A stretch of 64,000 nucleotides of DNA from Candidatus Desulfovibrio intestinavium (GCA_019118345.1 DWZD01000051.1:1498-65497); one strand, 5' to 3'. Positions 26,960 to 58,453 are shown, counted from the first letter of the stretch. Notes: generated by a model not told the origin, from the letters alone. Program-made: numbers and translations.

Positions 26960-29485
<2,526 letters not shown>

Positions 29486-29681
29486 CGGGACTCCTGACAA
29501 ACGACCGCGCCCGCGCGATCGGGGAAGTGGGGTTCATGGGTGGGGAGGGCAAGCCCCCGGCCTGTTCCCGTATAGTATAGGCAGGCTTTGCCGTTTGGCA
29601 ATGCCGCCATTCCGCAAAGAAAAAGGAACGGGACGCTAATGTCCGGGAGTTCCGAGCCGATAAGAGAGAAGGAACTGAGCG

Positions 29682-38762: not shown

Positions 38763-38882
38763 GCGGAACCGCACGGAAGAGAGCCGCCGGAGACGCTTTA
38801 CTTTTCCGCTGAATACCGTCAAGCTGACAGCACTGAAAAAGCAACCTTTCCCGGGCGGATGCCAGAGTCGTGGAGGCTTGCC

Positions 38883-44432: not shown

Positions 44433-44504
44433 CGGGGCCGTATCCCGCCCGGGAGAGGGTACGGCCCGCCGCCCGGCGGAAAGAGCATTGCGAGGTAATG
44501 AGCC

Positions 44505-46886
44505 ATGCGCGGCCTCTCCGCTTTGTTGTCGTCCGTTGCCGCCTGTCTGCCGCGCTGGTTGCGGCGGGCGGCGGGCGCTATCGGTCTGACGGCGGCCTGC
44601 GGTCTGCTGGCATATGGCCTGCTGGGCCTGTGCGCGCCGCCGCCCCTGCTGGAGGGCGTGCCCTTTGGCCGTCTGGTGCTGGATGCGGAGGGGGGCATGC
44701 TGCGCCTTGCGCTGGCCGGGGATCAGGCCTACCGCCTGCGCGTCCCGCTGGATGCCGTCGCCCCGGAGGCGGTCAGGGCGACGCTGGCCTATGAGGATAG
44801 GCATTTTTTCGCCCATCCCGGGATCAATCCCCTTTCTCTGCTGCGGGCGGCTTGGGTCACCTATGCGGGCGGGGGGCGGCGCATGGGCGCGTCCACCATC
44901 ACCATGCAGGTGGCCCGCCTGCGCCTCGGCCTGAATACGACCGGCATTGCCGGAAAGCTGCGGCAGATCTGGGCGGCCCTGCTGCTGGAACGGCATTACG
45001 GCAAGCAGGAGATTCTGGAAGCCTATTTCAATCTTGCGCCCTACGGCGGCAACATAGAGGGCATCGAAGCCGCCGCGCGCATCTACTTCGGCAAGCCCGC
45101 CGCGCAGCTGACTGCGCTGGAAAGCCATGCGCTGGCCGTCATTCCGCAGAATCCCGTCCACCGCCATCCCCTGCATGGCCGCGACTTTGCGGCGGCGCGC
45201 GCCCGGCTGGAAGGCCTGCTGGCGGCGGAGGACGGCTCCGCCGGCGGCGCACAGCCTCTGGCCCTGCCGCCCCTGCGGGTGCGCTCTCCGGCGCATTTGC
45301 CCTTTGGTGCGCCCCATGTCTGCGCGGAACTGCTGGCCGATGCCGCCGCGCCGGATGCGCGGGGCGTCATTGCCGCCACCATCGAGCCGGATGCGCAGCG
45401 GCTGCTGGAGGATCAGCTGTCCGCCCTCACGGCCCGGGGGCGCGTCCGGGGCATCCGCAATGCGGCGGCCCTGCTGCTGCGGGCCTCGGACATGCGGGTC
45501 TGCGCCCTGGCCGGTTCCGCCGATTTCCTTGATGCGGCCATCGACGGGCAGGTGGACGGCAGCCGTGCCCGCCGCTCGCCCGGTTCGACGCTCAAGCCCT
45601 TCATTTATGCCCTGGCGCTGGAGCAGGGCCTGATCCATCCCATGACCCTGCTCATGGACAGTCCGCGCTCCTTTGGCGGCTATGATCCGGAAAATTTCGA
45701 CAAGGGCTTTCGCGGCCCCCTGCCTGCCCATGAGGCGCTCAAGGCCAGCCGCAACCTGCCCGCCATTGCGCTGGCGGAACGGCTGGCCGCGCCGGGGCTG
45801 TACGGCTTTTTGCGGCAGGCGGGCGTGGCCCTGCCCAGGACGCCGGAGCATTACGGGCTGGCCCTGGTGCTGGGCGGGGCCGAGGTCAGCATGCGGGAAC
45901 TGGCGGGCCTGTATGCCATGCTGCTCAATCAGGGCCTGTGGCAGCCGTTGCGCCTGCGCCGCGATGCGCCCGTTGTGGCGCCGCGCCGCCTGCTCTCGCC
46001 GGAAAGCGCCTATGTGACCCTGCGCATGCTGGAACGGGATGACCTGATCCTGCCCACCCGCCACGGGCCGCTGCCCCTGCGCTGCAAGACGGGCACGTCC
46101 AACGGCTTCCGGGATGCCTGGACGGCGGGGATCGTCGGGGAGTATGTGCTGGTGGTCTGGGTGGGCAATTTCGACAATCGTCCCAACCCCTATCTTGTGG
46201 GCGGGGAAGTGGCGTTGCCGCTTTTCCGGGATACGGCACGCGCTCTGGCGGCCCTGCGTCCGCTGCGCGATCCCCTGCCTGCCCGGCGGGCGGGCCTGAA
46301 CGTGACGGAAATTCCCGTGTGCACCGCCACCGGGGACGTGGACGTTTCCCGCTGTGCCGAAACCACGCAAAGTCTGTTCATTCCCGGGGTGTCCCCGTTG
46401 CGCGACAGCGGCATCCTGCGGCCCATCCTCATCGACAAGGCCACGGGCCTGCGGGCCTGCGAAGCGCGCGAGGGCGAGACCGAGGAACGCTATTGGGAGT
46501 TCTGGCCGTCAGATGCCCGCGAGCTTTTTGCCCGGGCGGGCATCCACAAGCCCCTGCCGCCGGACTGGCTGCCGCAGTGCCGCCGTCAGTGCGCCGAGGC
46601 CTCCCTCGCGCCCGCAGGCAGGCCGCCGCGCATCCTGCTGCCCAAGAAGCATGTGGCATATTATCAAACGCTTTCCGGCGACAATCGCAGCCTGCCGCTG
46701 CTGGCCGCCGCCGAGCCGGACGTGCGGCGCATTCACTGGTTTGCGGGCAGAACCTATCTGGGCAGCGCGGCGCCGGGCGAAGTGCTGCTCTGGCGGCCTT
46801 CGAGCGCCGGGATGGTGGACATTCTGGCCGTGGATGATCTGGGGCGCAGCGCGCGGCAGACATGCCGCATCCGCCTGACGCCCTAG
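44505..46886 (+). CDS. pbpC: Penicillin-binding protein 1C (glycosyltransferase/transpeptidase)
   Basis: The GT51 motifs are RATLAYEDRHFFAHPGINPLSLLRA and GASTITMQVARL. The transpeptidase motifs are SPGSTLKPF (SxxK) and KTGTS. There is also a C-terminal PbpC-specific domain. GAGGTAA RBS. Confidence 0.93.
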   Translation: MRGLSALLSSVAACLPRWLRRAAGAIGLTAACGLLAYGLLGLCAPPPLLEGVPFGRLVLDAEGGMLRLALAGDQAYRLRVPLDAVAPEAVRATLAYEDRHFFAHPGINPLSLLRAAWVTYAGGGRRMGASTITMQVARLRLGLNTTGIAGKLRQIWAALLLERHYGKQEILEAYFNLAPYGGNIEGIEAAARIYFGKPAAQLTALESHALAVIPQNPVHRHPLHGRDFAAARARLEGLLAAEDGSAGGAQPLALPPLRVRSPAHLPFGAPHVCAELLADAAAPDARGVIAATIEPDAQRLLEDQLSALTARGRVRGIRNAAALLLRASDMRVCALAGSADFLDAAIDGQVDGSRARRSPGSTLKPFIYALALEQGLIHPMTLLMDSPRSFGGYDPENFDKGFRGPLPAHEALKASRNLPAIALAERLAAPGLYGFLRQAGVALPRTPEHYGLALVLGGAEVSMRELAGLYAMLLNQGLWQPLRLRRDAPVVAPRRLLSPESAYVTLRMLERDDLILPTRHGPLPLRCKTGTSNGFRDAWTAGIVGEYVLVVWVGNFDNRPNPYLVGGEVALPLFRDTARALAALRPLRDPLPARRAGLNVTEIPVCTATGDVDVSRCAETTQSLFIPGVSPLRDSGILRPILIDKATGLRACEAREGETEERYWEFWPSDARELFARAGIHKPLPPDWLPQCRRQCAEASLAPAGRPPRILLPKKHVAYYQTLSGDNRSLPLLAAAEPDVRRIHWFAGRTYLGSAAPGEVLLWRPSSAGMVDILAVDDLGRSARQTCRIRLTP

Positions 46887-47096
46887 GGGCTGCCGCCGCC
46901 GGGGACAGCCTGGCCGGGGGTGGCCCCGCTCTGCCCCGATGCCTGCACGGCCCGCGTCCGCCGCCGGCGCGCGCGGGGGATCCTCTCGCCCGACCCATCC
47001 TTCCGCTTGGGGAGGGACGGGGCACACGCCTTCACCGCAAGCCATGCGGCGTTGCGCAGGGGCCGCGCCCGCCGCCAGCCGCGGCGTCACTCTCCA

Positions 47097-47873
47097 TCAA
47101 CTGAAGCCGTAGTAGTCCACATAGCTGACCAGATCCTCCACCGTATCCCGCAAGGGGCCGAGCATGGCGTTCACGAAGCCGTCAATGGGGCCATAAATGG
47201 TCTGCGTGACGCTCACGGCGTACTTGACCGGCACCTTTTCGCTCAGAATGGGAATGGCCAGCCCCTTGAGCGAGGGATAAAGCTCCCCGTCCATGACGGC
47301 ATATCCCCGCTTGCGCACTTCCTCCAGATCCCGCAGCAGCTGTTCCGGGCTGCTGGTCGTCTTTTCCGTGAAGGTGGCGAATTCCGTCCGCTGCAGGTAG
47401 GCGTTCAGATCCTTTTCCGGCAGATGGGCCAGAATGGCCTTGCCCAGGGCTGAACAATAGGCCGGCACTGATCGCCCGACGGAAAACTGGGCATAGCTGG
47501 AATTGGTGCTTTGCAGGCGGTAGACGATGTCCTTGCCGTTCCACATGCCGAGATTGCATATCCCGTTGTTGTCCTTGTTTTTCTTTGCCAGTTCATCCAG
47601 AAACTGGATGGCGATCTGATCAAAGTCGCGTTTGGGCAGGATGCCCTTGCCGAGTTTGGACAGTTTGTCGGTGAGCACATAGTTGTTGTGCTGATCCTTG
47701 TCCACATAGCCGTGCAGGCGCAGGGTACTCAGAAAACGATAGCTGGCGCTTTTCTGCATGCCCATGCGTTTGGCCACGCTGGTGACGGTGACGTGCTTCT
47801 CCTCAACGAGCAGCTCCAGGAGTTGCAGGCCTTTTTCAAATGTTTGCACATAGATGACGCTGTTCTTCCCCAT
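47097..47873 (-). CDS. IclR-family transcriptional regulator
   Basis: N-terminal wHTH (VQTFEKGLQLLELLVEEKHVTVTSVAKRMGMQKSASYRFLSTLRLHGYV) and a C-terminal IclR effector domain (GRSVPAYCSALGKAILAHL...YAVMDGELYPSLKGLAIPI). Divergent from the GRE operon. Confidence 0.9.
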   Translation of the reverse strand: MGKNSVIYVQTFEKGLQLLELLVEEKHVTVTSVAKRMGMQKSASYRFLSTLRLHGYVDKDQHNNYVLTDKLSKLGKGILPKRDFDQIAIQFLDELAKKNKDNNGICNLGMWNGKDIVYRLQSTNSSYAQFSVGRSVPAYCSALGKAILAHLPEKDLNAYLQRTEFATFTEKTTSSPEQLLRDLEEVRKRGYAVMDGELYPSLKGLAIPILSEKVPVKYAVSVTQTIYGPIDGFVNAMLGPLRDTVEDLVSYVDYYGFS

Positions 47874-47952
47874 TACGAAATCCTTTTCCCCTCAGGATGA
47901 CGATTTTCCTAGCAACAAGATAGCCTGTTTTGCTTTTCACGTCGATAAATCC

Positions 47953-47981
47953 TTGACAAAGTGTGGCCTGTAAACAATACT
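47953..47981 (+). promoter_or_regulatory. Candidate sigma70 promoter of the cupin-SDR-GRE operon
   Basis: TTGACA (47953-47958), 17-bp spacer, AATACT (47976-47981). Confidence 0.45.
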
Positions 47982-47988
47982 AGAAAAA

Positions 47989-48007
47989 AATTCACGATAT
48001 GTGAATT
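47989..48007. promoter_or_regulatory. Perfect inverted repeat between the -10 element and RBS (candidate operator)
   Basis: AATTCAC-gatat-GTGAATT, with 7-bp perfect arms, 12 nt upstream of the cupin ATG and overlapping the predicted transcription start region. Confidence 0.5.
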
Positions 48008-48019
48008 AAGGAGGCTCCC

Positions 48020-48379
48020 ATGCAAAAGGTGATTCAGCTCGGCGACAAGGGAACCCCGACCGAAGTCGTGGAGGCCCTCGCGCCCAACCCGCTGTCGGGC
48101 CATCCCGTCACCCGTGTGCGGCGGCAGTTTGTGCATCCCGCGGGGCTGGTGAACGCCGGCATCTGGGAGTGTGCCGCGGGCAGCTTCGAAATTCCCGCCC
48201 ACCCCAGCCATGAGATGTGCACCATCCTGGAAGGGGAGGCCGTCATCGAGCATGATGACGGCAGCCGTCTGCCGGTGAAGGCCGGGGACAGCATTCTCAT
48301 CCCCAAGGGGACGCGCAACATCTGGCATGTGTCCGAGCGCATCAGAAAAATATTCATGTGTTGTTTTGAACCGGAGTAG
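48020..48379 (+). CDS. Cupin_3 (DUF861)-type small cupin protein
   Basis: 119 aa. ...AGIWECAAGSFEIPAHPSHEMCTILEGEAVIEHDDGSRLPVKAGDSILIPKG... matches the GIWEC..G.F....HE.c.iLEG pattern of the EutQ/ureidoglycine-hydrolase-like cupin_3 family. AAGGAGG RBS. Confidence 0.8.
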   Translation: MQKVIQLGDKGTPTEVVEALAPNPLSGHPVTRVRRQFVHPAGLVNAGIWECAAGSFEIPAHPSHEMCTILEGEAVIEHDDGSRLPVKAGDSILIPKGTRNIWHVSERIRKIFMCCFEPE

Positions 48380-48411
48380 CCGCAAGCGCGGACAATCACG
48401 AGGAGGAAGCA

Positions 48412-49227
48412 ATGAGTCAGGTACCCGTAGCCGTAGTGACCGGCGGCAGCCGCGGCATCGGCAAGGCCGTGGCCGATGAATGCATGAGCCTTGGTTTCCG
48501 TGTGGTGCTGGTGGCGCGCAGCGCGCGCAATCTGGAACAGGCCTGCCGGGAGTTGAGCGAAAAACACGCCCCGGATGCGGCCCACCAGCCCGACATGGTG
48601 TCCGTGGATGTGGCGGATGTGGCGGCCGTCAAGGCGGCGGCCGACGACATCATCCGTCGGCACGGTCATGTGGATCTTCTGTTCAATGCCGCCGGCATCA
48701 GCATTCCCGGCACCTTTGAACTGGATGCGGAAACCTTTACCCGCCTGTTTGAAATCAACCTCCGCGCGCCCTTCCTTTTTATGCAAGCCTTTCTGCCGCA
48801 CATGGCGGCGCAGGGCGGCGGGCGCGTGGTCAACGTGGCGTCGCGCAACGGCAAGGTGGCCGTGGCGGGACTGGGCGGCTATTCGGCCTCAAAATACGGT
48901 CTGGTGGGTCTGAGCGAATCCGCCTACCGGGCCTATGCGGCGCAGGGCATCAGCATCACGACCATCTGTCCCGGCTGGGTCAATACGGAGATGGCCGCCA
49001 ATGAAGGGCCGTCCCTCAGGCCCGAGGAAATGGTGCAGCCGGAAGATGTGGCCAAGACCCTGCGCTGGCTGCTGAGCATGAGTCCGTCCGTGCGGGTCAT
49101 GGAAGTCATGCTCGAATGCGCCAAGGATGTGGAACGCCGGGCCTCGGTGGAACTGGCCAAGCTGTATGCCCTCAAGCACCGGCATGAAGATGAATTCAGC
49201 ACCCTGGACGTACAGGCGGAATCATGA
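48412..49227 (+). CDS. Short-chain dehydrogenase/reductase (classical SDR)
   Basis: TGGSRGIGKAV cofactor motif, NAAG, and the catalytic S...YSASK tetrad region. 271 aa. GAGGAGGAAG RBS. Confidence 0.92.
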   Translation: MSQVPVAVVTGGSRGIGKAVADECMSLGFRVVLVARSARNLEQACRELSEKHAPDAAHQPDMVSVDVADVAAVKAAADDIIRRHGHVDLLFNAAGISIPGTFELDAETFTRLFEINLRAPFLFMQAFLPHMAAQGGGRVVNVASRNGKVAVAGLGGYSASKYGLVGLSESAYRAYAAQGISITTICPGWVNTEMAANEGPSLRPEEMVQPEDVAKTLRWLLSMSPSVRVMEVMLECAKDVERRASVELAKLYALKHRHEDEFSTLDVQAES

Positions 49228-50138
49228 AGGCCGTCATAGAGAATATTCAGCATTTCAGCCTGCATGACGGGCCGGGTACGCGAACCACGGTCTTTTTCAA
49301 GGGCTGTCCCCTCCGCTGCGCCTGGTGTTCCAATCCCACCACGCAGAATTTCGGGGTCGAACTCCTGCAAAAGGCGGACAAGTGCCTGCGCTGCGGCGCC
49401 TGCGCCGCGGTCTGCCCGCATCAGGCCGTGAGCATGGTTCCCGGCTCGCTGCCGCGCATCGACAGAAGCCGTTGCGTCAATTGCGGCCTGTGCACCGCCT
49501 CCTGTCCCGGCAAGGCGCTGGTCATGGCCGGGCAGGAATACACGCTGGAAAGCGTGGTGACCAATATTGCGGCCGATATGCTCTTTTACCGCAATTCCGG
49601 CGGCGGGGTCACCCTGTCCGGCGGCGAGGTGCTGGCCCAGAGCGACTTTGCCGTGGCGCTCTGCGAGGAATGTCACGCCCTCGGCATCCAGACGGCCGCA
49701 GAAACCTCGGGCTATGCGCCCTACGAGAATCTGCGCCGCCTGTCGTCGGTGACGGATATTCTGTTCATGGACATCAAGCATGCGGACAACGCCGAACACA
49801 AGCGGCTCACGGGCATGGACAATGCGCATATCCTCGACAATTTCGCCCGACTGCTCCGGGACAGGGTGGAGCCGGTTCATGTGCGGCTGCCGCTGATCCC
49901 GGGCTGCAACGACAGCGACGACCATCTGGCCGCCTATGCGGCGCTGCTGTCGGGCATGGAAGGGAATTTTGATCTGGAGGTGCTGCCCTATCACCGTCTC
50001 GGCAAGAACAAATACGACATGCTGGGCCGGGAGTATGCCCTCGGGGATACCCCTCCGCTTGAGGAAGAACGGGTCGCCCGGGCGGTGTCCCTGCTGCGCG
50101 AGGGCCTCGGGCGCATTCCCGTCCTGTGTACGGCCTGA
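49224..50138 (+). CDS. Glycyl-radical enzyme activating enzyme (radical SAM, with two auxiliary ferredoxin-type clusters)
   Basis: HDGPGTRTTVFFKGCPLRCAWCSNP (CX3CX2C), followed by CLRCGACAAVCP and CVNCGLCTASCP. The ATGA overlaps the SDR stop. 304 aa. Confidence 0.95.
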   Translation: MKAVIENIQHFSLHDGPGTRTTVFFKGCPLRCAWCSNPTTQNFGVELLQKADKCLRCGACAAVCPHQAVSMVPGSLPRIDRSRCVNCGLCTASCPGKALVMAGQEYTLESVVTNIAADMLFYRNSGGGVTLSGGEVLAQSDFAVALCEECHALGIQTAAETSGYAPYENLRRLSSVTDILFMDIKHADNAEHKRLTGMDNAHILDNFARLLRDRVEPVHVRLPLIPGCNDSDDHLAAYAALLSGMEGNFDLEVLPYHRLGKNKYDMLGREYALGDTPPLEEERVARAVSLLREGLGRIPVLCTA

Positions 50139-50188
50139 CCGCTGGAACGAACAAACCTGTCATGAGCAACGTTTCTGGAGGAACAATC

Positions 50189-52573
50189 ATGGCTCTTACC
50201 GAAGAGGCGCGTCTTGATCGCGTCATGAAGCTGAAGTCCCAGTTCTTTTCACATCGCCCCAGCGTCTGCATTGAAGGCGCGCTGTCCAAGACCGAGGTGT
50301 TCAAGGCGACCGAAAGCGAACCCATGATCATCCGCCGCGCCAAGGCCTTCAAGCGGCATTGCGAAACCAAGACCATCACCATCCAGCCCCATGAGCTTAT
50401 CGTGGGCAATGCGGGCGCAGTGGCCCGCAGCATCCATGTGAACCCGGAATTGTCCAACAACTGGTTCTATGACGAGCTGGACACCATGAGCACCCGGCCG
50501 CAGGATCCCTACCAGATCACCGAGGAGCAAAAGCGCCTGTACCGTGAGGTCGTCTATCCCTACTGGAAGGGCAAGACCCTGCGCGACTACTGGAATGCCC
50601 GCGCCCCCGAGGATGTGCGCGAACTGGTGGCCGTGGGCGGCGTGTGCGACAATGACGTGAAGATCGAATGCACGCCCGGCGACATGGTGCCGGCGTTTCA
50701 GCAGATCATTCTTCCGCTGGGCTTCGACGGCATCCGCCGGCAGGCGGAAGAACATCTGAAGGATCTGGACTTCAACCAGATCGAAAACTTCGCCCGCCGG
50801 GACTTCTGGCGTTCCGTCATCATCTGCTGCGAGGGCTTTTCCGCGCTCTGCGAGCGGCATGCCGACATGGCCCGCGCGCTTCAGGTGGGCGCCGACGAGC
50901 AGCGCCGCGAGGATCTGCGCCGCATCGAGGCGGCCTGCCGGGCCATTGCCCACAATCCGCCCAGCACCTTCCACGAGGCCGTGCAGCTGGTCTACTTCGT
51001 CTTTGTGGGCCTGTTCATCGAGGGCAATGCCGGCGGCTATTCGCCGGGCCTGCTCGACCAGTACCTGCTGCCCTATTATGAAAAGGCGCAGGCCGACGGC
51101 ATGAGCGACGAGGAGATTCTCGAGATCATCGAATGCTTCTATGTCAAGACCGGCGAACAAATCTGGTACTGGAACGAGCCGGCCGCCCGGCACTATTCGG
51201 GCTACTGCGCCTTCCAGAACATCGCCCTCGGCGGTCTGGACACCTACGGGCGGGATGCCGTCAATCCGCTGACCTATCTCATGCTTCAGGCGGGCATCGA
51301 CGTGCAGATGGTGCAGCCCTCGCTCTCCGTGCGCATCAGCAAGAAGAATCCCGAAGCCTTCTTCCTCAAGGTGGCCGAACTGGTGCAGACCGGCTCCGGC
51401 TTCCCGGCGGTGTTCAGTGATGACGTGGGCTACAAGATGCTGCTCAAGAAGGGCATCCCCGCCCACCTTGCCCGCGACTGGGCGCCCATCGGCTGCGTGG
51501 AAGCCCAGCTGGCCGGGCGGCACTATCAGTGGAGTTCCGCGGGCCATTACAATCTGGGCAGCGCCGTGGAATTTGCCATGACCAACGGCATCCACCTGCA
51601 AAGCGGCAAGAGGCTTGGCATCGAAACCGGCGATCCGGCCACCTTCACGACCTTCGAGCAGTTCAAGGAAGCGCTCTTTGCCCAGCTGCGCCACCTGCTG
51701 CATCAGTTCTCCGTATCGCAGAATACGCTGGAAGAACTGCATTATCAGTATCTGCCCAATCCCGTGGCCTCCATGTTCACCGCCGGCTGCATGGAAAAGG
51801 GCCTTGACCTCACCCACGGCGGCGCGGAATTCAATACCGGCCCCGGCATGAACGGCAACGGCGTGGGCGACTTCGTGGATTCCCTGGCTGCGGTCAAGAA
51901 GATCATCTTTGACGAAAAGCGCTTCAGCATGGCCGATCTGGCCGCGGCCATCAAGGCCGACTTCAAGGGCTATGAGGCCCTGCAACGCGCCCTTGAGGAA
52001 GATGCGCCCAAGTGGGGCAACAATGACCCTGAAGCCGACGAGGCCATGATCGCCATGTGCGACGTGATCATCCGCGAAATCGACACCTATCGCGGCAAGC
52101 TCGGCAATCACAAGCTGCCCGCGCTCTATCCCGTGTCCTCCAACGTGCCGCAGGGCATGGCCGTGGCGGCCCTGCCGTCGGGCCGCAATGCGGGCAAGCC
52201 GCTGGCCGACGGCTGCTCGCCCTCGCAGGGCCGCGACCGCCTTGGCCCCACCGCCATTTTGCAATCGCTCGGCAAGCTGCCCCACGAAAGCATTGACGGC
52301 GGCACCCTGCTGAACATCAAGTTCACGCCGCAGGTCATTCAGGGCAAGGAGGGCCGTGCCCGCATTTCGGCCTTCCTCAAGACCTTCCTTGACCTTGATG
52401 TGTTCCATGTGCAGTTTAACGTGGTCAGCCACGAAATCCTGCGCTGCGCCCAGAAGAATCCTGAGGAGTACAAGAGTCTGCTGGTGCGTGTGGCGGGCTA
52501 CAGCGCTTACTTTGTGGAGCTGAGCAAGGAAATTCAGGAAGACATCCTGAGCCGCACGGCGCACGAACTCTAA
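50189..52573 (+). CDS. Glycyl radical enzyme of the 1,2-eliminase (dehydratase/lyase) type, substrate unknown
   Basis: 794 aa from the ATG 50189 (GGAGGA RBS). The Cys loop is WAPIGCVEAQLAG (Cys436/Glu438 by my count; TGC at 51494). The glycyl radical motif is LLVRVAGYSAYFVEL (Gly770; GGC at 52496). The conserved LGIETGDP segment is present. There is no CC dyad, so this is not a pyruvate formate-lyase. Confidence 0.93.
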   Translation: MALTEEARLDRVMKLKSQFFSHRPSVCIEGALSKTEVFKATESEPMIIRRAKAFKRHCETKTITIQPHELIVGNAGAVARSIHVNPELSNNWFYDELDTMSTRPQDPYQITEEQKRLYREVVYPYWKGKTLRDYWNARAPEDVRELVAVGGVCDNDVKIECTPGDMVPAFQQIILPLGFDGIRRQAEEHLKDLDFNQIENFARRDFWRSVIICCEGFSALCERHADMARALQVGADEQRREDLRRIEAACRAIAHNPPSTFHEAVQLVYFVFVGLFIEGNAGGYSPGLLDQYLLPYYEKAQADGMSDEEILEIIECFYVKTGEQIWYWNEPAARHYSGYCAFQNIALGGLDTYGRDAVNPLTYLMLQAGIDVQMVQPSLSVRISKKNPEAFFLKVAELVQTGSGFPAVFSDDVGYKMLLKKGIPAHLARDWAPIGCVEAQLAGRHYQWSSAGHYNLGSAVEFAMTNGIHLQSGKRLGIETGDPATFTTFEQFKEALFAQLRHLLHQFSVSQNTLEELHYQYLPNPVASMFTAGCMEKGLDLTHGGAEFNTGPGMNGNGVGDFVDSLAAVKKIIFDEKRFSMADLAAAIKADFKGYEALQRALEEDAPKWGNNDPEADEAMIAMCDVIIREIDTYRGKLGNHKLPALYPVSSNVPQGMAVAALPSGRNAGKPLADGCSPSQGRDRLGPTAILQSLGKLPHESIDGGTLLNIKFTPQVIQGKEGRARISAFLKTFLDLDVFHVQFNVVSHEILRCAQKNPEEYKSLLVRVAGYSAYFVELSKEIQEDILSRTAHEL

Positions 52574-52580
52574 TGTATGC

Positions 52581-52604
52581 GGGCCGGGGCCTGTGCCCCG
52601 GCCC
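52581..52604 (+). other. Intercistronic perfect stem-loop between the GRE and binding-protein genes
   Basis: GGGCCGGGGC-ctgt-GCCCCGGCCC begins 8 nt after the GRE stop. No T-run follows, and the RBS GGAGG of the next gene follows at 52612. Confidence 0.6.
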
Positions 52605-52625
52605 CTGATCCCGGAGGCATGAACC

Positions 52626-53675
52626 ATGAAGCAAGTTTTTTTCTGGGCAGTGCTCTGCCTGCTGCTCGCCACGACGGCGCAGGCTGCCCCTGTAACGGTG
52701 AAAAGCGCCTGGCTTGACGAGTACGAGGCCCTGCCCGCCTGGTATGCCCATGAGCGGCAATGGGATGCGGAGGCGGGGATCAGCCTTGACATGCGCATCT
52801 ATCCTTCGGGCAAATTTCTCATGGACAACATGAGCAGCATCAAATGGGACGTGGCCGGTCTGGGCGGCGCGCCGGCCGTGCCGGGCATGCTGCGCAAGCA
52901 GGCCATTGTGGTGGGCATCGGTTCTGACGAGGCCGCTGCCAATGCCGTGTATGTGCGTCCTGACAGTCCGCTGCTGACGGCTTTTCAGCAAAAGCTGTCC
53001 GCCCGCGATTACGCCCGGCTGGTGACGGGCAAGGTGGTGCTCTGCCCGCGCGGCACGAGCGCGCACCAGCTGCTTCTGCTCTGGCTGGATCGCATGGGCC
53101 TCAGCGAGGAAAGCATCTCGCTCATGGATACGCCCCCCGCCGAAAGCGTGGGCAATCTCAGCGGCGGGGTGGGGGATATGGCCGTGCTCTGGTCGCCCGA
53201 GACCTGGGCCGCCGAGCAGGCCGGACTGAAAGCCCTGCTGACCGGCAAGGATCTCGGCCTCGTCCAGCCGACCCTGCTCATGGCCCGCTGCGACTATGCG
53301 GAAAAGAATCCCGACGGCGTCCGGGCCTTTCTGGCCTGCTATCTGCGGGCCGTCGAGGCCCTGCGGGCCATGCCCGCCGAGGAACTGGGCGCGCTGTACC
53401 GGCAGTTCCAGAAGGAATTTTGCGGCAAGGACATCAGCGCGGAACAGGCCGCGCGGGACGTGGCGAGCCATACGCTGTACCCCCTTGACCGACAGCGGGA
53501 GGTGCTTGCCTCGGAAGGGGAGCTGTTGACGTGGCTGGGGGATGTCATCGCCTTCCATGAGCGTACCGGCGAGCTCAGCCGGGGCCAGACGCGCGCCATC
53601 AGGGAACTGTCGCTGGTGCGGGCGGATTTTCTGCCCGCGTCTCTGCCCGAATCGCATGCCTCTGACGGGCAGTGA
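52626..53675 (+). CDS. Periplasmic substrate-binding protein of the NitT/TauT (SsuA/TauA/NMT1) ABC family; no cognate permease or ATPase nearby
   Basis: Signal peptide MKQVFFWAVLCLLLATTAQAA. The 349-aa protein has SsuA/TauA-like architecture (...IYPSGKFLMDNM.. WDVAGLGGAPAV ... VVLCPRGTSAHQLLLLWLDRMGL ... GDMAVLWSPE...). The family call rests on overall resemblance only. Confidence 0.7.
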   Translation: MKQVFFWAVLCLLLATTAQAAPVTVKSAWLDEYEALPAWYAHERQWDAEAGISLDMRIYPSGKFLMDNMSSIKWDVAGLGGAPAVPGMLRKQAIVVGIGSDEAAANAVYVRPDSPLLTAFQQKLSARDYARLVTGKVVLCPRGTSAHQLLLLWLDRMGLSEESISLMDTPPAESVGNLSGGVGDMAVLWSPETWAAEQAGLKALLTGKDLGLVQPTLLMARCDYAEKNPDGVRAFLACYLRAVEALRAMPAEELGALYRQFQKEFCGKDISAEQAARDVASHTLYPLDRQREVLASEGELLTWLGDVIAFHERTGELSRGQTRAIRELSLVRADFLPASLPESHASDGQ

Positions 53676-53761
53676 AAGCGGGCAGGCGGCCGTCGCGGCC
53701 TTTTGCCAAGCATTGATCTGAAACGCCGCCCGTAGTGCGCGGCAGGGAGAACGCTGATGCG

Positions 53762-53800
53762 GGGGAGCGGCTTTTTTGCCGTTCCCCCGTTCTGTTTGCG
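53762..53800 (+). terminator. Possible terminator of the GRE operon
   Basis: GGGGGAGCGGC-tttttt-GCCGTTCCCCC followed by GTTCTGTTTG. Confidence 0.4.
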
Positions 53801-53846
53801 TCTTCTGCCGGGGAGGCGGCAGGGGGAGATCGCGGCGGTATTATTG

Positions 53847-53891
53847 AGAAAGAAATGCAATTGTAATTTTTTTCACAATTTTTTTCTTTCT
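53847..53891. promoter_or_regulatory. 45-bp imperfect palindrome in an AT-rich spacer just upstream of the TRAP promoter (candidate regulator site)
   Basis: The outer arms are AGAAAGAAA (53847-53855) and TTTCTTTCT (53883-53891). The inner arms are AATTGTAA and TCACAATT, centred on a T7 run. It ends 13 bp before the -35 hexamer. Confidence 0.45.
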
Positions 53892-53904
53892 GCCCATAAA
53901 AGCC

Positions 53905-53933
53905 TTGACTCGTGAAAATCCCTTCTCTAAAAT
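53905..53933 (+). promoter_or_regulatory. Near-consensus sigma70 promoter for the TRAP operon
   Basis: TTGACT (53905-53910), 17-bp spacer, TAAAAT (53928-53933). It would give a ~130-nt AT-rich leader before dctP. Confidence 0.55.
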
Positions 53934-54070
53934 TTAAATTACATAAAACAAGTTTTATTAAATAGAACAAAGTGAGGGGGGGGGTGAAAAAAATTTTCAT
54001 TATTTCACTTGGGTAAGGTTCATATCTCCCGGAACTGGCCGGGGAAACAGGAAAATCAAAGGAGTGTCCC

Positions 54071-55096
54071 ATGAAGCTGTTGCAAACCATGATATGCACG
54101 CTTGCCGTGTGTGCCCTTGTTCTTGGCGGTCTGAGCGAATCGGTCAAGGCCGAACCCAAGGAAATCAAGCTGCTCTTCCCCGAACCCTTCAGCGCGGCCT
54201 CCTCCTATGCCGAAGGGCAGGCCGTGGGCATCTATTACGGCGCTCTGGACTTTTACATGCAGAACCATCCCGCCCTGCGTGGCAAGTTCAAGATGCGCTG
54301 GGTGGGCGACGTGGTGAAGTCCCCGGCCGACGCCCTCAATGCCGTGGCCACCGGGGCCGGGCAGATTACCTACACCCTGCCGCAGTTCATCGAACAGTTT
54401 GACCCCGATTGGCGCATCATCACCACGCCCGGCATGTTTGTGGACATGGCCCACTTCCTGCGCGCCATGAGTACGCCGGAATGGAAGGCCAAGCAGGAAA
54501 TGCTGGAAAAGAACTGCGGCTTCAAGATTCTCAAGTGGACGAACTCCATCGGGCACTTCTACCTCTGGACCAAGACCGGCCCGGCCGACACCCTCAAGGC
54601 CCTGCGCAACCAGAAGATCCGCTATGCCGGCCAGCAGTCCTATGCCGTGGCCTTCAACAAGCTGGGCCTCGTGGGCGTGGCGCTGCCCTATACCGAAGTG
54701 GTTTCCGCTCTGCAGACCAACATGATCGAAGGGCTGACCAACGACATTTTCGGCTACACCTATTACGATCTGCCGCGCCAGACCAAGTACATGCTGCCGG
54801 TTCCCTTCGGCTTCGGGCCGCAGGCGCTGGTGGTGAACGCGGAATGGTGGAACAACCTGCCCAAGGAGCAGCGCGACGCCATCAACTTCGTGGTGCAGTG
54901 CACGGACGTGCACCAGTACTTTGAAGCCGAGGAAAAGCGCATCCTCAAGTGGTGGGATGAAAACCCCGGCACCGAGCTGGTCAAGCTGACGCCTGAAGCG
55001 CGCGCCGAATGGGATGCCGCGCTGGCTGAAGCCGCCGCGGAATTCACCAAGGACGCCGATCCGGCCTTGCTCAAGGCCATTCGCGACAACAAGTAA
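54071..55096 (+). CDS. TRAP transporter substrate-binding protein (DctP family, divergent)
   Basis: Signal peptide MKLLQTMICTLAVCALVLGGLSESVKA. The 341-aa protein has DctP-like organisation, immediately followed by dctQ/dctM homologues. AAAGGAG RBS. Confidence 0.8.
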   Translation: MKLLQTMICTLAVCALVLGGLSESVKAEPKEIKLLFPEPFSAASSYAEGQAVGIYYGALDFYMQNHPALRGKFKMRWVGDVVKSPADALNAVATGAGQITYTLPQFIEQFDPDWRIITTPGMFVDMAHFLRAMSTPEWKAKQEMLEKNCGFKILKWTNSIGHFYLWTKTGPADTLKALRNQKIRYAGQQSYAVAFNKLGLVGVALPYTEVVSALQTNMIEGLTNDIFGYTYYDLPRQTKYMLPVPFGFGPQALVVNAEWWNNLPKEQRDAINFVVQCTDVHQYFEAEEKRILKWWDENPGTELVKLTPEARAEWDAALAEAAAEFTKDADPALLKAIRDNK

Positions 55097-55151
55097 GGAA
55101 TAACGGGGCCGGAGCCTCGGCTCCGGCCCGGCCGCAAGCCAGGGAGGCCGC

Positions 55152-55664
55152 ATGTCCGACCACACGACGACCCGTTACGAGCGCATCAAGCAGCGCTGGA
55201 TGGAATTCTGGGGACTGGTGTTTTTTCTGGGAGTGCTCATCAACTTTGCCGAAATCATCTGCCGCACCGTCTTTCATTTTTCCATTGACCTCATGTACGA
55301 CCTGCCCATCTGGCTGACCATCTGGGCGGTCATGATGCTGGCCGGCCCCATTCTGCTGGATGGGGAGCATGTTTCCGTGGATATGGTGCGCGACGCCGTG
55401 CACGGCAAGCCGCGCAAGTGCATCGAAATCATCAACTGTCTGGCGACCATTGCCTTCGGCGCGGTGGTGACCTGGAGCGGCTATATTTTCATTAGCCAGT
55501 GCTACCGCTTCAACATGAAGATTATCCGTTGCATCCCCGTCCCCCGCTGGATGGTGGAAATCTGCATTCCGCTGGGCATGGCCGTGTTCACCCTGTATGC
55601 CCTCATTCAGCTTGGCCGCGTGCTGCGCACCAATTACGACAAGAAGCCCGAAAACGGCGACTAG
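55152..55664 (+). CDS. TRAP transporter small permease (DctQ family)
   Basis: 170 aa with four TM helices, positioned between the DctP-like and DctM genes. GGGAGG RBS. Confidence 0.85.
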   Translation: MSDHTTTRYERIKQRWMEFWGLVFFLGVLINFAEIICRTVFHFSIDLMYDLPIWLTIWAVMMLAGPILLDGEHVSVDMVRDAVHGKPRKCIEIINCLATIAFGAVVTWSGYIFISQCYRFNMKIIRCIPVPRWMVEICIPLGMAVFTLYALIQLGRVLRTNYDKKPENGD

Positions 55665-55699
55665 ATTCTCACGCCTGTCGCATTGAACAAGGAGACGGC

Positions 55700-56983
55700 A
55701 TGGACACCACCACAATCCTTTCCCTGGCGTTGATCGTCCTCTTTTTCCTCATCGGCACGCCGCTGAGCGTCACCTTCAGTATCGGTTCCATCATCATCAT
55801 GATCCATACGATGGGCTTTCCCGTCGGCAATATTTCCCAGATTTTTTATACGACCATCAGCGGCTATCCCCTGCTGGCCATGCCGTTCTTCATCTTTGCG
55901 GGCAATGCCATCCTGTCCAGCGGCGGCATGGGCCATTTGCGCGACTTCATGAACCGTCTGGTCGGTCATCTGCCCGGCGGCATGGCCGTGGCCATCTGCA
56001 TCTTTGCCGCCTTTCTCGGTTCCATTTCCGGCTCCGCCACGGCCTGTCTGGCCATCATCGGCACCATCTTCGTGCCCATGCTGGCGGAATCCGGCTATTC
56101 CCGGGCCTTCGCATCCGGGCTGGCCGTGACCTCGGCCGGGCTGGGCGCGGTCATTCCGCCCAGCGTCTTCATGATCATTTTCGGCGCGAGCAATCGCATT
56201 TCCATTGCCGACCTGTTTGCCGCGGGCGTGGGGCCAGGCCTGCTGGCCGCCCTGCTCATGTGCGTGCTGACGGTGATCATCTCCCTGCGTCGCGGCTACT
56301 ACGGGGGAAAGAAGGCCAGCACGGCCGAACGGCTGGATGCCTTCCGCAAGGCCCTGCCCATTCTGCTCATGCCCATCATCGTGCTGGGCGGCATTTATTC
56401 CGGCATTTTCAGCCCCACGCAGGCGGCCTCGGTGGCCTGCGTCTATTCGCTCCTGCTCGGGGTGTTCATCTACAAGGGCATAACCTGGCGCGTCTTTCTC
56501 AATATGCTGGTGGAAACGGTGCGCCTGAGCAGCATGATTTATTTCCTCGTCATCGGCGGCGAACTGTTCGGGCGCGTGCTCGGCTATGTGGGCCTGCCGC
56601 AGATGATCAGCCAATGGGTCATCAACATGCACCTTGGCCCCACCTCCTTCCTCTTTGCGGTACAGGCGCTTCTGCTGGTCATGGGCTTTTTCTTCTCCTC
56701 CTTCCCGATGGTGGTCATCGTGCTGCCGCTCTTTTTGCCCAGCGTCATGGCGCTCGGCATTGACCCGGCCCTCTATGGCGCGCTGGCCGTGTTCTGCGCC
56801 ATCATCGGCGAAGTGACGCCGCCCATGGGGCCGCAGCTCTGGATCGCCGCGCCCATCTGCAAGGAGAAGATCGGCAACATCATGCGGGAATCCTGGGCCT
56901 TCCTCGGCGTGCAGGTGCTCACCCTGGGCATTGTCACCGTTTTTCCGCAGATTTCGCTGTTCCTCGTCAACCTCATGCGCTGA
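55700..56983 (+). CDS. TRAP transporter large permease (DctM family)
   Basis: 427 aa. MDTTTILSLALIVLFFLIGTPLSVTF..., ~12 TM helices, with typical DctM segments (GGMGHLRDFMNRLVGHLPGGMAVA, SGSATA, IPPS). AAGGAGA RBS. The ORF-track start at 55499 overlaps dctQ and is rejected. Confidence 0.92.
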   Translation: MDTTTILSLALIVLFFLIGTPLSVTFSIGSIIIMIHTMGFPVGNISQIFYTTISGYPLLAMPFFIFAGNAILSSGGMGHLRDFMNRLVGHLPGGMAVAICIFAAFLGSISGSATACLAIIGTIFVPMLAESGYSRAFASGLAVTSAGLGAVIPPSVFMIIFGASNRISIADLFAAGVGPGLLAALLMCVLTVIISLRRGYYGGKKASTAERLDAFRKALPILLMPIIVLGGIYSGIFSPTQAASVACVYSLLLGVFIYKGITWRVFLNMLVETVRLSSMIYFLVIGGELFGRVLGYVGLPQMISQWVINMHLGPTSFLFAVQALLLVMGFFFSSFPMVVIVLPLFLPSVMALGIDPALYGALAVFCAIIGEVTPPMGPQLWIAAPICKEKIGNIMRESWAFLGVQVLTLGIVTVFPQISLFLVNLMR

Positions 56984-57057
56984 CACGGCAGGCAGGCGCG
57001 GCTTGCGGGCCGCGTCGGCTGATGACGAGCATTCATTGACCCGGAAGGAGGAAGAAG

Positions 57058-58218
57058 ATGTCCAAGACCCTGCTTATCCTCGGACTCGGCGGCGTGGGCT
57101 GCTTTGCCGCCCACTTGGCGGCGCGCCTGCCCGGCCTGCATGTGGTGGTGGGCGATGTGCGTGAAGAACATGCGCGGCAGGTGGCCAACAGTCTGATCTC
57201 GGTCAATTTTTTCGAGGGGGCGGCGCAGCGCTTCCCCCGGGTGGATGCCGTGGGGCTGGACATGATGCGGCCGGAGGACATTGCCCGGGTACTGGAAACC
57301 TGGCGGCCGGACGTGATCTTCAACGCCACGACCCTGCTGTCGTGGTGGCATCTGCATCGCCTGCCCCATGCGCTGGCCCGCCGCATCTACTACGGCGATC
57401 CCGAAGGCTGCGGCCTGCGGCCCTGGGCGCCCGGTCATGGCGTGCTCCTGACCCATCTCATGCGGGTCGTGCGCGCCGTGCTGCCGCAAGCGCGGGTGGT
57501 CAACGTGTCCGGGCCGGACTATCTGCATGAGATGCTGGGCAAGGTGGGGCTGGCCCCGGATGTGGGCGTGGGCAATGTGGCCCTGCTGGAACCCATCCTG
57601 CGACGCATCGTGGCCGAAAAGCGAAACGTGCCGCCCGAAGCGCTGGACATCACCCTGGTGGGTCACCATTGCATGTGCATGCAGATTTTTCAGGAAGGCG
57701 CGCTGGCCCCGGAAATTCCCTTCCATCTCCGCATCGAGGAGGACAGGCGGGACATTACCGCCGAGCTGGATATCGACCGCGATCTCTGGGCGCGGGTTCC
57801 CGCCCATATGCCCCTGCTTTCGGAGGTCAATCAGCAATGCGTGGCGGCCTCGGCCCTCAGGATCATCCGGGCCATGCTCTACGATACCGGAGAGATCATG
57901 CATGCGCCGGGGCCGTGCGGCCTGCCCGCGGGCTGCCCGGTGCGGGTGGACGCTTCCGGCGTGAAGGTGGTCGTGCCGCCGGAACTGGGCCGGGAACGGA
58001 TGCTGCAAATCATGTACGAGGCCAACCGCCGTGAGGGCTTCGAGCCGACGGGCGAGGACGGCACGGTCACGGCCACGCCGCATTGCGCGGAGGTGGTTGA
58101 GGACGTTTTCGGCATCAGCTGGCGCTACCGGCGGTTCCGGCTGGAAGAAATGTTCGACGCCCATCAGGAAATGGCGGAGGCGTTCAGCCGGCTGCTGGCC
58201 CGCTATCCCGGAGCCTGA
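57058..58218 (+). CDS. Saccharopine-dehydrogenase-like NAD(P)-binding oxidoreductase
   Basis: N-terminal Rossmann LLILGLGGVGCFAAHLAARLPGLHVVVGDV, 386 aa. Overall it looks like the Sacchrp_dh / homospermidine-synthase-like superfamily; that family call is from memory. GGAAGGAGGAAG RBS. Last gene of the TRAP operon. Confidence 0.6.
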   Translation: MSKTLLILGLGGVGCFAAHLAARLPGLHVVVGDVREEHARQVANSLISVNFFEGAAQRFPRVDAVGLDMMRPEDIARVLETWRPDVIFNATTLLSWWHLHRLPHALARRIYYGDPEGCGLRPWAPGHGVLLTHLMRVVRAVLPQARVVNVSGPDYLHEMLGKVGLAPDVGVGNVALLEPILRRIVAEKRNVPPEALDITLVGHHCMCMQIFQEGALAPEIPFHLRIEEDRRDITAELDIDRDLWARVPAHMPLLSEVNQQCVAASALRIIRAMLYDTGEIMHAPGPCGLPAGCPVRVDASGVKVVVPPELGRERMLQIMYEANRREGFEPTGEDGTVTATPHCAEVVEDVFGISWRYRRFRLEEMFDAHQEMAEAFSRLLARYPGA

Positions 58219-58375
58219 TTTCTTTCGGCCAACTCCCTGAAACGCGCGGCCGTCGCAGACCATGCAGGCTGAGGCGGCCCGCGCCCCCCCTGTTCGTGCG
58301 CTCTCCCTGTCGCGGACAGGGCCCCGTCGGCAGGGCAACCGTCCCTGTCGTCCGATTTGTGGCGTTTGTAGGCAC

Positions 58376-58419
58376 AAAAAAAACATTCCGGCGCGCCGTC
58401 AGGCGAGCGCCGGAATGTT
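58376..58419 (-). terminator. Rho-independent terminator of typA
   Basis: Minus-strand RNA: AACATTCCGGCGC-tcgcctgacg-GCGCCGGAATGTT-TTTTTTT. Confidence 0.85.
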
Positions 58420-58453
58420 GTTGCCGCAGGCTGCGGGGCGGCCGCAAGGGCGG

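Follow-up and report, generated by a model that had tools for sequence, protein, structure and literature searches.

The 1,2-eliminases among the glycyl radical enzymes (GREs) carry a single catalytic Cys followed by x-Glu and have no Cys-Cys dyad; a 2026 review names choline trimethylamine-lyase (CutC) as the sole C-N-cleaving GRE and describes whole clades without function (PMC13450708). In the gut, GRE eliminases yield trimethylamine (TMA), H2S precursors, and other host-active metabolites. The closest described systems for the present work are the N-methyl-cis-4-hydroxy-D- and -L-proline dehydratases HpzG (PDB entry 8IOF) and HpyG (8ID1), covered by the same review (PMC13450708), and CutC, which is recognized among other GREs by Asp216, Phe395, Cys489, Glu491, and Gly821 (Martinez-del Campo et al., PMC4453576). 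Here, we analyze a GRE encoded at positions 50189 to 52573 of a 64,000-nucleotide stretch of DNA from Candidatus Desulfovibrio intestinavium (GCA_019118345.1, DWZD01000051.1:1498-65497). This whole stretch is called the window, and features given by position lie on its + strand unless noted otherwise. Judged by sequence, the protein belongs to a distinct, abundant, and uncharacterized clade with a conserved accessory module, and it very probably is an eliminase of new specificity, not a CutC, HypD, HpyG/HpzG, IslA, or glycerol dehydratase (GD).

The gene encodes 794 amino acids plus a stop codon in an uninterrupted translation and is preceded by a GGAGG Shine-Dalgarno sequence 7 nucleotides upstream of the ATG at 50189; its homologs are 792 to 797 amino acids long. 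Pfam matched a full-length PFL-like domain (PF02901, E=1.4e-187) and a Gly_radical domain (PF01228, E=2.2e-31). The Cys loop WAPIGCVEAQLAG, starting at residue 431 (51479 to 51517), holds Cys436 and Glu438 as a single Cys-x-Glu (GCVE) without a Cys-Cys dyad, and the glycyl radical motif RVAGYSAYF, starting at residue 767 (52487 to 52513), holds Gly770. Both motifs had been named in the original prediction, made from the DNA, and were located by translation and confirmed by the two Pfam matches. The loop DWAPIGCVEAQLAGR is unchanged across 24 homolog clusters of 73 to 94% identity. An AlphaFold2 model built with 33 homologs reached a mean predicted local distance difference test score of 91.1 and a predicted template modeling (TM) score of 0.91. 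In a fold search, it matched the crystal structures of every eliminase at TM scores of 0.93 to 0.97, which confirms the GRE fold; because all eliminases match in this range, the search does not discriminate function. Taken together, these features identify the product as a bona fide, functional-looking GRE 1,2-eliminase, as predicted from sequence and model. The GC content of the window is 63.8%, so that long spurious open reading frames are common in other frames; in the GRE frame, the GC content at third codon positions (GC3) is 0.82. A candidate for a second GRE in the window, an 846-amino-acid open reading frame at 26960 to 29500, was rejected and is SecA.

Among PDB sequences, the best matches were HpzG (8IOF, 660 bits) and HpyG (8ID1, 644 bits), followed by CutC (563 to 601 bits) and GD (553 bits). 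Sequence alignment and structure-based comparison gave identities of 41 to 42% to HpzG, 39 to 40% to HpyG, and 36 to 38% to CutC; between themselves, HpzG and HpyG share 50% of residues by alignment. Structure-based identities were 38% to GD, 31 to 34% to propanediol dehydratase (PD), 32% to HypD, 32 to 34% to IslA, IseG, and HpsG, and 30% to HplG, and identity to any crystallized GRE is at most 42%. The broad PFL2/GD subfamily model TIGR01774 was the sole NCBIfam model passed (680 against a cutoff of 678). The equivalog models for CutC (TIGR04394, 664.5 against 1050), HypD (NF043068, 560.6 against 1100), HpsG (NF048011, 592.5 against 1000), and HpfG (NF048009, 522.3 against 1000) were all failed. 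A homolog search of 5.8 billion proteins returned matches of 73 to 94% identity and then progressively different subclades at 47 to 70%. The homolog clusters of this clade hold from hundreds to about 1,100 member sequences each and are common in gut metagenomes. A scan of species-representative genomes located the close relatives in gut Desulfovibrionaceae, among them metagenome-assembled genomes of uncultured Desulfovibrio, Bilophila, and Mailhella, and Bilophila wadsworthia ATCC 49260 has a 68%-identical homolog. In the literature searched, with subscription journals outside its scope, we found no characterized member of this clade and no GRE acting on carnitine or amino alcohols.

We placed the protein in a neighbor-joining tree (100 bootstraps) of 57 sequences, including labeled references. 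It falls into a tight clade with 100% bootstrap support, apart from every labeled GRE. This clade is nested in a Desulfobacterota-rich superclade (100%) that contains no labeled members; the HpyG/HpzG clade (100%) and CutC branch outside it. With 99% support, the superclade, HpyG/HpzG, and CutC group together to the exclusion of HypD and the PD-like enzymes. Two GREs that branch with CutC, from Dethiosulfatibacter aminovorans (L024:9989-12349) and Anaerotignum (L026:9105-11474), have Val for Glu at the Cys-x-Glu position (GCVVP...) and are thus eliminase-like without the catalytic Glu. Two homologs had conflicting provenance: a 60%-identical protein (P0073) was deposited under the apicomplexan Porospora cf. 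gigantea and is probably bacterial contamination, and a 73%-identical partial copy (L015) lies on a contig binned as Rikenellaceae, by mis-binning or horizontal transfer.

For the active-site pocket, structural equivalences from the IslA paper (PMC8473560) were combined with our alignments; these equate HypD Asp278, CutC Thr334, and IslA Thr312 in beta2, and CutC Phe395 with HypD Phe340 at the aromatic site (PMC8473560). By alignment, the beta1 segment CTPGDMVP (50669 to 50692) provides Cys161 and Asp165. Asp165 corresponds to CutC Asp216, to Glu in HpzG and HpyG, to His160 in HypD, to His in the PD-like enzymes, and to Gln193 in IslA. Cys161, upstream of it, occupies the site of an Arg found in HypD (Arg156), HpzG, HpyG, and IslA (Arg189), and the site of CutC Tyr208 is occupied by Val157/Ile159. 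The beta2 segment GGYSPGL (51032 to 51052) includes Gly282, equivalent to CutC Thr334, HypD Asp278, and a His of the PD-like enzymes, and Leu288, a position at which 99% of 86 other relatives have Arg. In the aromatic segment YSGYCAFQN (51194 to 51220), Tyr336 aligns with CutC Phe389 and Phe342 with CutC Phe395. The Cys loop with its following strand, WAPIGCVEAQLAGRHYQWSSAGHY (51479 to 51550), contributes Cys436, Glu438, Ala439, Ser449, Ser450, and His453. Directly after the catalytic Glu, Ala439 takes the place of Pro in CutC, GD, and PD and of Thr in HypD, HpyG, and HpzG. Ser449 (Cys+13) corresponds to CutC Thr502, Ser450 (Cys+14) to an Asp in the PD-like enzymes, and His453 (Cys+17) to CutC Tyr506 and HypD Tyr450. 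The beta8 segment ALYPVSSN (52121 to 52144) supplies Tyr647, which is shared with the GD/PD-like enzymes (GD Tyr640), whereas CutC, HpzG, and HpyG have Leu there. All of these pocket residues are invariant within the clade at 73% identity or more. The catalytic beta1 His and Cys+14 Asp of the PD-like group, both present in our references L043, L045, and L029, correspond to His164 and Asp447 in GD.

All five residues by which CutC is recognized are kept, as Asp165, Phe342, Cys436, Glu438, and Gly770, and the protein shares with CutC the loop GRxYQW[S/T]S; these retained hallmarks, the equivalents of Asp216 and Phe395 above all, were missed in the original prediction. The CutC sites Tyr208, Thr334, Thr502, Tyr506, and Leu698 are changed, as are Phe389 (to Tyr) and Pro492 (to Ala). 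The pocket also lacks the Arg/His/Asp set of HypD, the His/Asp pair of GD and PD, and the Arg/Gln/Arg triad of the C-S lyases (IslA Arg189, Gln193, and Arg678; PMC8473560, PMC13450708). As read from these alignments, it is a mosaic matching no characterized enzyme. The changes Thr334 to Gly282, Tyr208 to Val157/Ile159, and Pro492 to Ala439 would make it roomier than that of CutC, and the changes of the beta8 Leu to Tyr647, Tyr506 to His453, and Phe389 to Tyr336 would add hydrogen bond donors. A roomier pocket with extra donors is what a choline-like head group bearing an added anionic arm would need.

The compact scaffold and the missing Pro after GCVE had suggested an affinity to HypD in the original prediction. 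Its premises were largely sound: CutC and the PD-like enzymes do read GCVEP, three HypD orthologs verified by the NCBIfam HypD equivalog (1330 to 1530 bits against the cutoff of 1100) read GCVETG and are 786 to 792 amino acids long, close to the predicted 790, and annotation of the locus with Pfam and NCBIfam revealed no proline metabolism genes. The conclusion did not hold. The Cys-to-Gly spacing, offered as a link to the compact group, is 334 in this protein, 332 in CutC and HpzG, 331 in HpyG, and 330 to 331 in HypD, and only the PD-like enzymes, which carry an insertion, reach 380 to 390. The extra length of CutC is an N-terminal extension, and the cores are collinear (residues 10 to 791 here, 63 to 845 in CutC). 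Because size and spacing are common to CutC, HpyG/HpzG, and GD, compactness is not diagnostic of HypD. Likeness to HypD (6VXC) comprises the length of about 790 amino acids, the absence of Pro after GCVE, the YSPG motif in beta2, and the shared aromatic residue (HypD Phe340, Phe342 here). In contrast, identity is only 32 to 34%, HypD sits on a distant branch of the tree, and its contact residues His160, Arg156, Asp278, and Tyr450 are Asp165, Cys161, Gly282, and His453 in our protein, whose closest relatives are HpzG, HpyG, and CutC; a HypD affinity was thus rejected on identity, tree, and pocket. The further suggestion of a distinct clade with a new substrate fared better in its first part, which stands on the 100% bootstrap, the failed cutoffs, and the unmatched pocket; the new substrate is something that we, too, only infer from sequence. 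In alignment and tree, the protein does not fall inside a functionally uniform, characterized clade with all substrate contacts conserved.

Most of the functional information resides in the neighboring transporter, short-chain dehydrogenase/reductase (SDR), and cupin genes, which the original prediction overlooked. The GRE is accompanied in at least 15 loci by an IclR regulator, a cupin_3 protein, an NADP-type SDR, an activase, an NMT1-like binding protein, and the tripartite ATP-independent periplasmic (TRAP) transporter DctPQM, with order and orientation shuffled. Conservation of content while order shuffles argues for functional coupling of these genes, and the GRE is predicted to be the catalytic core of the conserved catabolic module that they form. 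In B. wadsworthia-type loci, a complete NitT/TauT-type ATP-binding cassette (ABC) transporter around the NMT1-like protein replaces TRAP, and a second GRE, 55 to 60% identical, shares the single activase. The other common Bilophila/Desulfovibrio type has the 794-amino-acid GRE and a 789-amino-acid paralog on either side of the binding-protein gene.

Two-GRE loci of the Bilophila type were seen in L004 to L007 and L089 (paralog, for example, at L005:5928-8294), L012, and L079. The pocket of the paralog differs: beta1 carries Ser-Glu, a His precedes GCVE, the loop reads GCVEPD, and beta8 has Ile. The paralog (P0053) is present in 222 blocks of the collection, and the pairing of paralogous GREs recalls the isomer pair HpyG/HpzG. 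In B. wadsworthia ATCC 49260 (L012:6532-8896), the second GRE is split into open reading frames of 525 and 266 amino acids, whether through a frameshift, as a strain-specific pseudogene, or by an assembly error; it is intact, with 799 amino acids, in the metagenomic locus L079.

Gene context of relatives provided further hints at the substrate; Pfam-annotated contigs were used here, as calling genes by GC3 had given errors for several genes in loci of low GC content. In locus L011, a clade member with 70% identity and virtually the same pocket is found in the order activase, GRE, DUF4125, cupin_3, a transporter of the betaine/carnitine/choline transporter (BCCT) family, and an MttB-family gene, which adjoins a gene for an iron-containing alcohol dehydrogenase. 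The MttB-family gene (L011:15886-17406) has an in-frame TAG at 16864 to 16866 (YIAGG-TAG-TDSN), and its MTTB domain (residues 16 to 481) extends over this codon. It is a candidate pyrrolysine-containing methyltransferase, arranged as the pyrrolysine (Pyl)-type TMA methyltransferases are, and its specificity is likely for TMA. In the wider superclade, a Desulforhopalus member has the trio of GRE, activase, and cupin among genes for MttB, two corrinoid proteins, two URO-D-type methyltransferases, a pterin-binding protein, and CobW. A Eubacteriaceae member adjoins a BCCT transporter and a corrinoid protein, another member the ethanolamine permease EutH, and others have a cupin and TRAP. TRAP and NitT/TauT-type ABC systems import anions, and zwitterionic betaine-like acids are the substrate class that fits both BCCT and this anion-type uptake. 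Bilophila is already known for Pyl-dependent use of TMA.

Two superclade loci deserve separate mention. Just upstream of the Desulforhopalus GRE, the methyltransferase/corrinoid island has taken up an RVT_1 reverse transcriptase gene (L080:8245-9154), which probably belongs to a group II intron or retron. A 58%-identical superclade member (L086:5883-9343) is preceded by two SDR genes, two NodB-type polysaccharide/N-acetyl deacetylase genes, and one Glt symporter gene, a context suggesting that de-N-acetylation releases the compound on which some subclades act.

Our preferred interpretation, held tentatively as nearly but not quite an even prospect, is that the GRE works as a C-N lyase in the manner of CutC and that its substrate is a zwitterionic beta-hydroxy-ammonium acid brought in by the linked importers. 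Gly770 would store the radical installed by the adjacent radical S-adenosylmethionine (SAM) activase, and the thiyl radical at Cys436 would take a hydrogen atom from the carbinol carbon of the substrate. With Glu438 deprotonating the substrate hydroxyl, the amine, held by Asp165, Phe342, and Tyr336, would be eliminated, and return of the hydrogen from Cys436 would give a keto or aldehydo acid; by analogy to CutC, a ketyl radical would thus precede amine elimination. Reduction of the carbonyl or iminium product would fall to the SDR. The substrate would be a small imported zwitterion in which a hydroxyl and a (methyl)ammonium group are vicinal and a carboxylate or sulfonate is present as well. 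Radical 1,2-elimination requires a hydroxyl vicinal to the leaving group, and L-carnitine, from which TMA and acetoacetate would arise, fits on every count and is the leading candidate, even though this specific assignment is doubtful. It would be tempting to see in the clade an anaerobic trimethylamine-lyase for L-carnitine or a closely related beta-hydroxy-betaine, and in it the second GRE C-N lyase after CutC; we regard this as possible but rather improbable. The weak likeness of the SDR to 3-hydroxybutyrate dehydrogenase is compatible with an acetoacetate product, although not diagnostic, and the missing microcompartment shell genes fit a nonvolatile product. The tandem paralog of the Bilophila-type loci would take a second isomer or a demethylated analogue.

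Several observations weigh against a C-N lyase. Carnitine use or direct conversion of carnitine to TMA by Desulfovibrio or Bilophila is unreported in the literature searched. The branching order among the superclade, HpyG/HpzG, and CutC has bootstraps of just 22 to 45%, and in overall similarity HpzG (42%) lies slightly ahead of CutC (38%). Because the dehydratases HpzG and HpyG likewise have an acidic beta1 residue (Glu), Asp165 is no proof of C-N cleavage. The combined BCCT and MttB context comes from a single locus, whose Mailhella label conflicts with its GC content of 35%, and the MttB of this locus scores 444 on the TMA methyltransferase equivalog, under the NCBIfam cutoff of 525. Within the operon, the likeness of the SDR to 3-hydroxybutyrate dehydrogenase is generic and under all cutoffs, and the model accounts for neither the cupin nor the orphan NMT1-like binding protein; binding proteins of the NMT1/SsuA type are classically tied to sulfonates and nitrate, not betaines.

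A real though minor possibility is that the enzyme is a dehydratase of the HypD/HpyG type, acting on a hydroxylated cyclic or N-methyl amino acid such as a hydroxyproline isomer or N-methyl-hydroxyproline. Hydrogen would be taken next to the ring or secondary nitrogen and water lost, and the SDR, an NADPH-dependent enzyme plausible as an imine reductase, would reduce the iminium in place of pyrroline-5-carboxylate reductase. HpzG and HpyG are, after all, the nearest solved structures by sequence (42 and 40%; TM scores of 0.97 and 0.96), with about 793 amino acids, Cys-x-Glu without a following Pro, an acidic beta1 residue, and an adjacent activase, and the MttB and corrinoid genes beside superclade members would also fit demethylation of a betaine followed by dehydration. 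Nonetheless, HpyG and HpzG form their own clade with 100% bootstrap that excludes our protein, and they differ from it in the loop (GCVETNL against GCVEAQL), in beta1 (Glu against Asp165 and the conserved Arg against Cys161), in beta8 (Leu against Tyr647), and in S/C-Y-T against QWS. Losing the Arg shared by all three dehydratases, together with HypD Asp278 and His160, does not suit such a substrate, and the HypD equivalog score is about half its cutoff. A locus of the HpyG clade, taken as a proxy for both enzymes, has AraC and YbaK-like tRNA_edit genes in place of cupin_3, SDR, TRAP, and NMT1, the window locus is free of proline genes, and the in-frame TAG of the L011 MttB points to TMA and not to a ring amine. 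Cleavage or dehydration of an organosulfonate, such as a relative of isethionate, 2,3-dihydroxypropane-1-sulfonate (DHPS), or sulfolactate, feeding sulfite respiration as IslA and HpsG do, we regard as unlikely. This reading draws on the NMT1/SsuA/TauA-like binding protein co-transcribed with the GRE, the complete NitT/TauT-type transporter of the B. wadsworthia module, the specialization of Bilophila in sulfonates, and the import of isethionate, taurine, and DHPS by TRAP systems of related bacteria (PMC11668362, PMC13335735). IslA, IseG, and HpsG also occur in the same organisms, share the Cys-x-Glu chemistry, and are linked to TRAP or sulfonate-type uptake. They are, however, about 30 to 40 amino acids longer and only 32 to 34% identical, IslA is associated with a microcompartment, and their Arg/Gln/Arg triad is replaced by Cys161, Asp165, and a beta8 strand without Arg, leaving two acidic residues, Asp165 and Glu438, in the pocket. 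The HpsG and HpfG models were failed (592 and 522 against 1000), the binding protein is far under the SsuA and TauA cutoffs, and the locus has no sulfite-handling genes.

Dehydration of a diol or hydroxy acid in the manner of the B12-independent enzymes GD and PD (1R8W, 5I2G, 9RCO) appears quite improbable. The imported compound would be a polyhydroxy carboxylate such as glycerate, erythronate, or threonate, with the adjacent SDR reducing the aldehyde; the common fold, the 38% identity to GD, the shared beta8 Tyr, and the best, though weak, PDB matches of DctP, which are hydroxy-acid binders, would agree with this. The beta1 His and Cys+14 Asp of all PD-like references are, however, Asp165 and Ser450 here, amine-related contexts recur across the superclade, and the protein groups with CutC and HpyG/HpzG and not with the PD-like branch (99% bootstrap). 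A divergent CutC is highly improbable, despite the five recognition residues, the rank of CutC as the best-scoring equivalog model, the BCCT, iron-containing alcohol dehydrogenase, and MttB genes of L011, the common 99%-supported supergroup, and TM scores of 0.96 to 0.97 to 5FAU and 5A0U. Accepted CutCs are 61 to 88% identical to one another (PMC4453576), against 36 to 38% here, and the score on TIGR04394 is well under its cutoff. The choline-contacting residues Tyr208, Thr502, and Tyr506 are changed to Val157/Ile159, Ser449, and His453. The N-terminal extension of CutC, its microcompartment, the cut genes, and genes for a CoA-acylating aldehyde dehydrogenase and an alcohol dehydrogenase are absent from the protein or the window, in which both transport systems are of anion-binding types and not choline transporters.

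If a C-N lyase on a carnitine-like betaine were confirmed, it would constitute a new gut source of methylamines and link to the Pyl-dependent TMA use of Bilophila. Gut Desulfovibrionaceae, relatives of B. wadsworthia among them, would then convert a dietary quaternary amine directly, with a single enzyme, to TMA and a beta-keto acid, independently of the gamma-butyrobetaine/bbu path and of the oxygen-dependent CntAB. The clade occurs in Desulfovibrio and Mailhella as well as in Bilophila, whose member B. wadsworthia is a pathobiont. Residue-based metagenome screens call CutC by residues that the clade has in full, so it can be mis-annotated as choline TMA-lyase or silently excluded. Even with another substrate, the eight conserved genes of the module offer functional discovery a clearly delimited target. 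On the annotation side, a 46%-identical homolog (P0097) carries the JGI label choline trimethylamine-lyase in spite of having Phe or Tyr, not Asp, in beta1. A 2025 paper reports cutC/cutD in B. wadsworthia, whereas a curated survey found 97% of Bilophila genomes to be non-TMA-producing (PMC12125255); CutC-like GREs such as those of this clade may have been mis-annotated as CutC.

In the window, the module begins with the IclR-family regulator (47097 to 47873, - strand; Pfam HTH_IclR and IclR_C), which is divergent from the operon and was found in 13 related loci. A candidate sigma-70-like promoter, TTGACA-17-AATACT (47953 to 47981; 10/12 in a consensus scan, a pattern match alone), lies upstream of the gene for a small Cupin_3/EutQ-like cupin of 119 amino acids (48020 to 48379; PF05899, E=6e-18). 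Cupin_3 is the most widely conserved partner of the GRE superclade and adjoins the GRE in Desulfovibrionaceae, Desulforhopalus, and other loci; the closest PDB entries of the cupin are uncharacterized proteins throughout. The next gene encodes a classical SDR of 271 amino acids (48412 to 49227; Pfam adh_short, E=1.6e-53) with the motifs TGGSRGIG, VARSAR, and YSASK. This enzyme is probably NADP(H)-dependent; it reaches no NCBIfam equivalog, and its best named similarities are to 3-hydroxybutyrate dehydrogenases and FabG. The GRE-activating radical SAM enzyme, with 304 amino acids (49224 to 50138; Pfam Radical_SAM and Fer4; TIGR02494, 333.8 bits against a cutoff of 174), has a CX3CX2C motif and two ferredoxin-like CX2CX2C motifs, at residues 28, 54, and 84.

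Downstream of the GRE, a gene for a periplasmic NMT1/SsuA-like solute-binding protein of 349 amino acids with a Sec signal peptide (52626 to 53675; Pfam NMT1_2) shows weak similarity to SsuA and TauA, below their cutoffs; no ABC partner for it was found in the window. A strong terminator-like hairpin with a 13-bp stem and 10 GC pairs (53759 to 53790; pattern match) ends the unit from the cupin to this binding protein, and a second candidate sigma-70-like promoter (53905 to 53933; pattern match) is located ahead of dctP. The TRAP transporter comprises the substrate-binding subunit DctP (341 amino acids with a signal peptide, 54071 to 55096; Pfam DctP, NCBIfam TRAP_S1), the small membrane subunit DctQ (55152 to 55664; Pfam DctQ), and the large membrane subunit DctM (427 amino acids from the ATG at 55700, with a ribosome binding site, 55700 to 56983; Pfam DctM, TIGR00786). 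PDB searches with DctP (at most 53 bits), the NMT1-like protein, the SDR, and the cupin returned weak or uncharacterized matches from which no ligand could be inferred. An Rfam scan of 46500 to 58500 at E≤0.1 detected no riboswitch, and no EutM-like microcompartment shell gene was found in the window.

The operon is flanked by housekeeping genes, with alpha-2-macroglobulin and PBP1C upstream and BipA and a PNP/UDP-family (PF01048) phosphorylase downstream. The upstream pair, unrelated to the GRE operon, occupies 38859 to 46886, where the gene for alpha-2-macroglobulin (1857 amino acids) lies directly 5' of that for the PBP1C-type transglycosylase/transpeptidase. Such pairing of alpha-2-macroglobulin and Pbp1C genes is a known arrangement.

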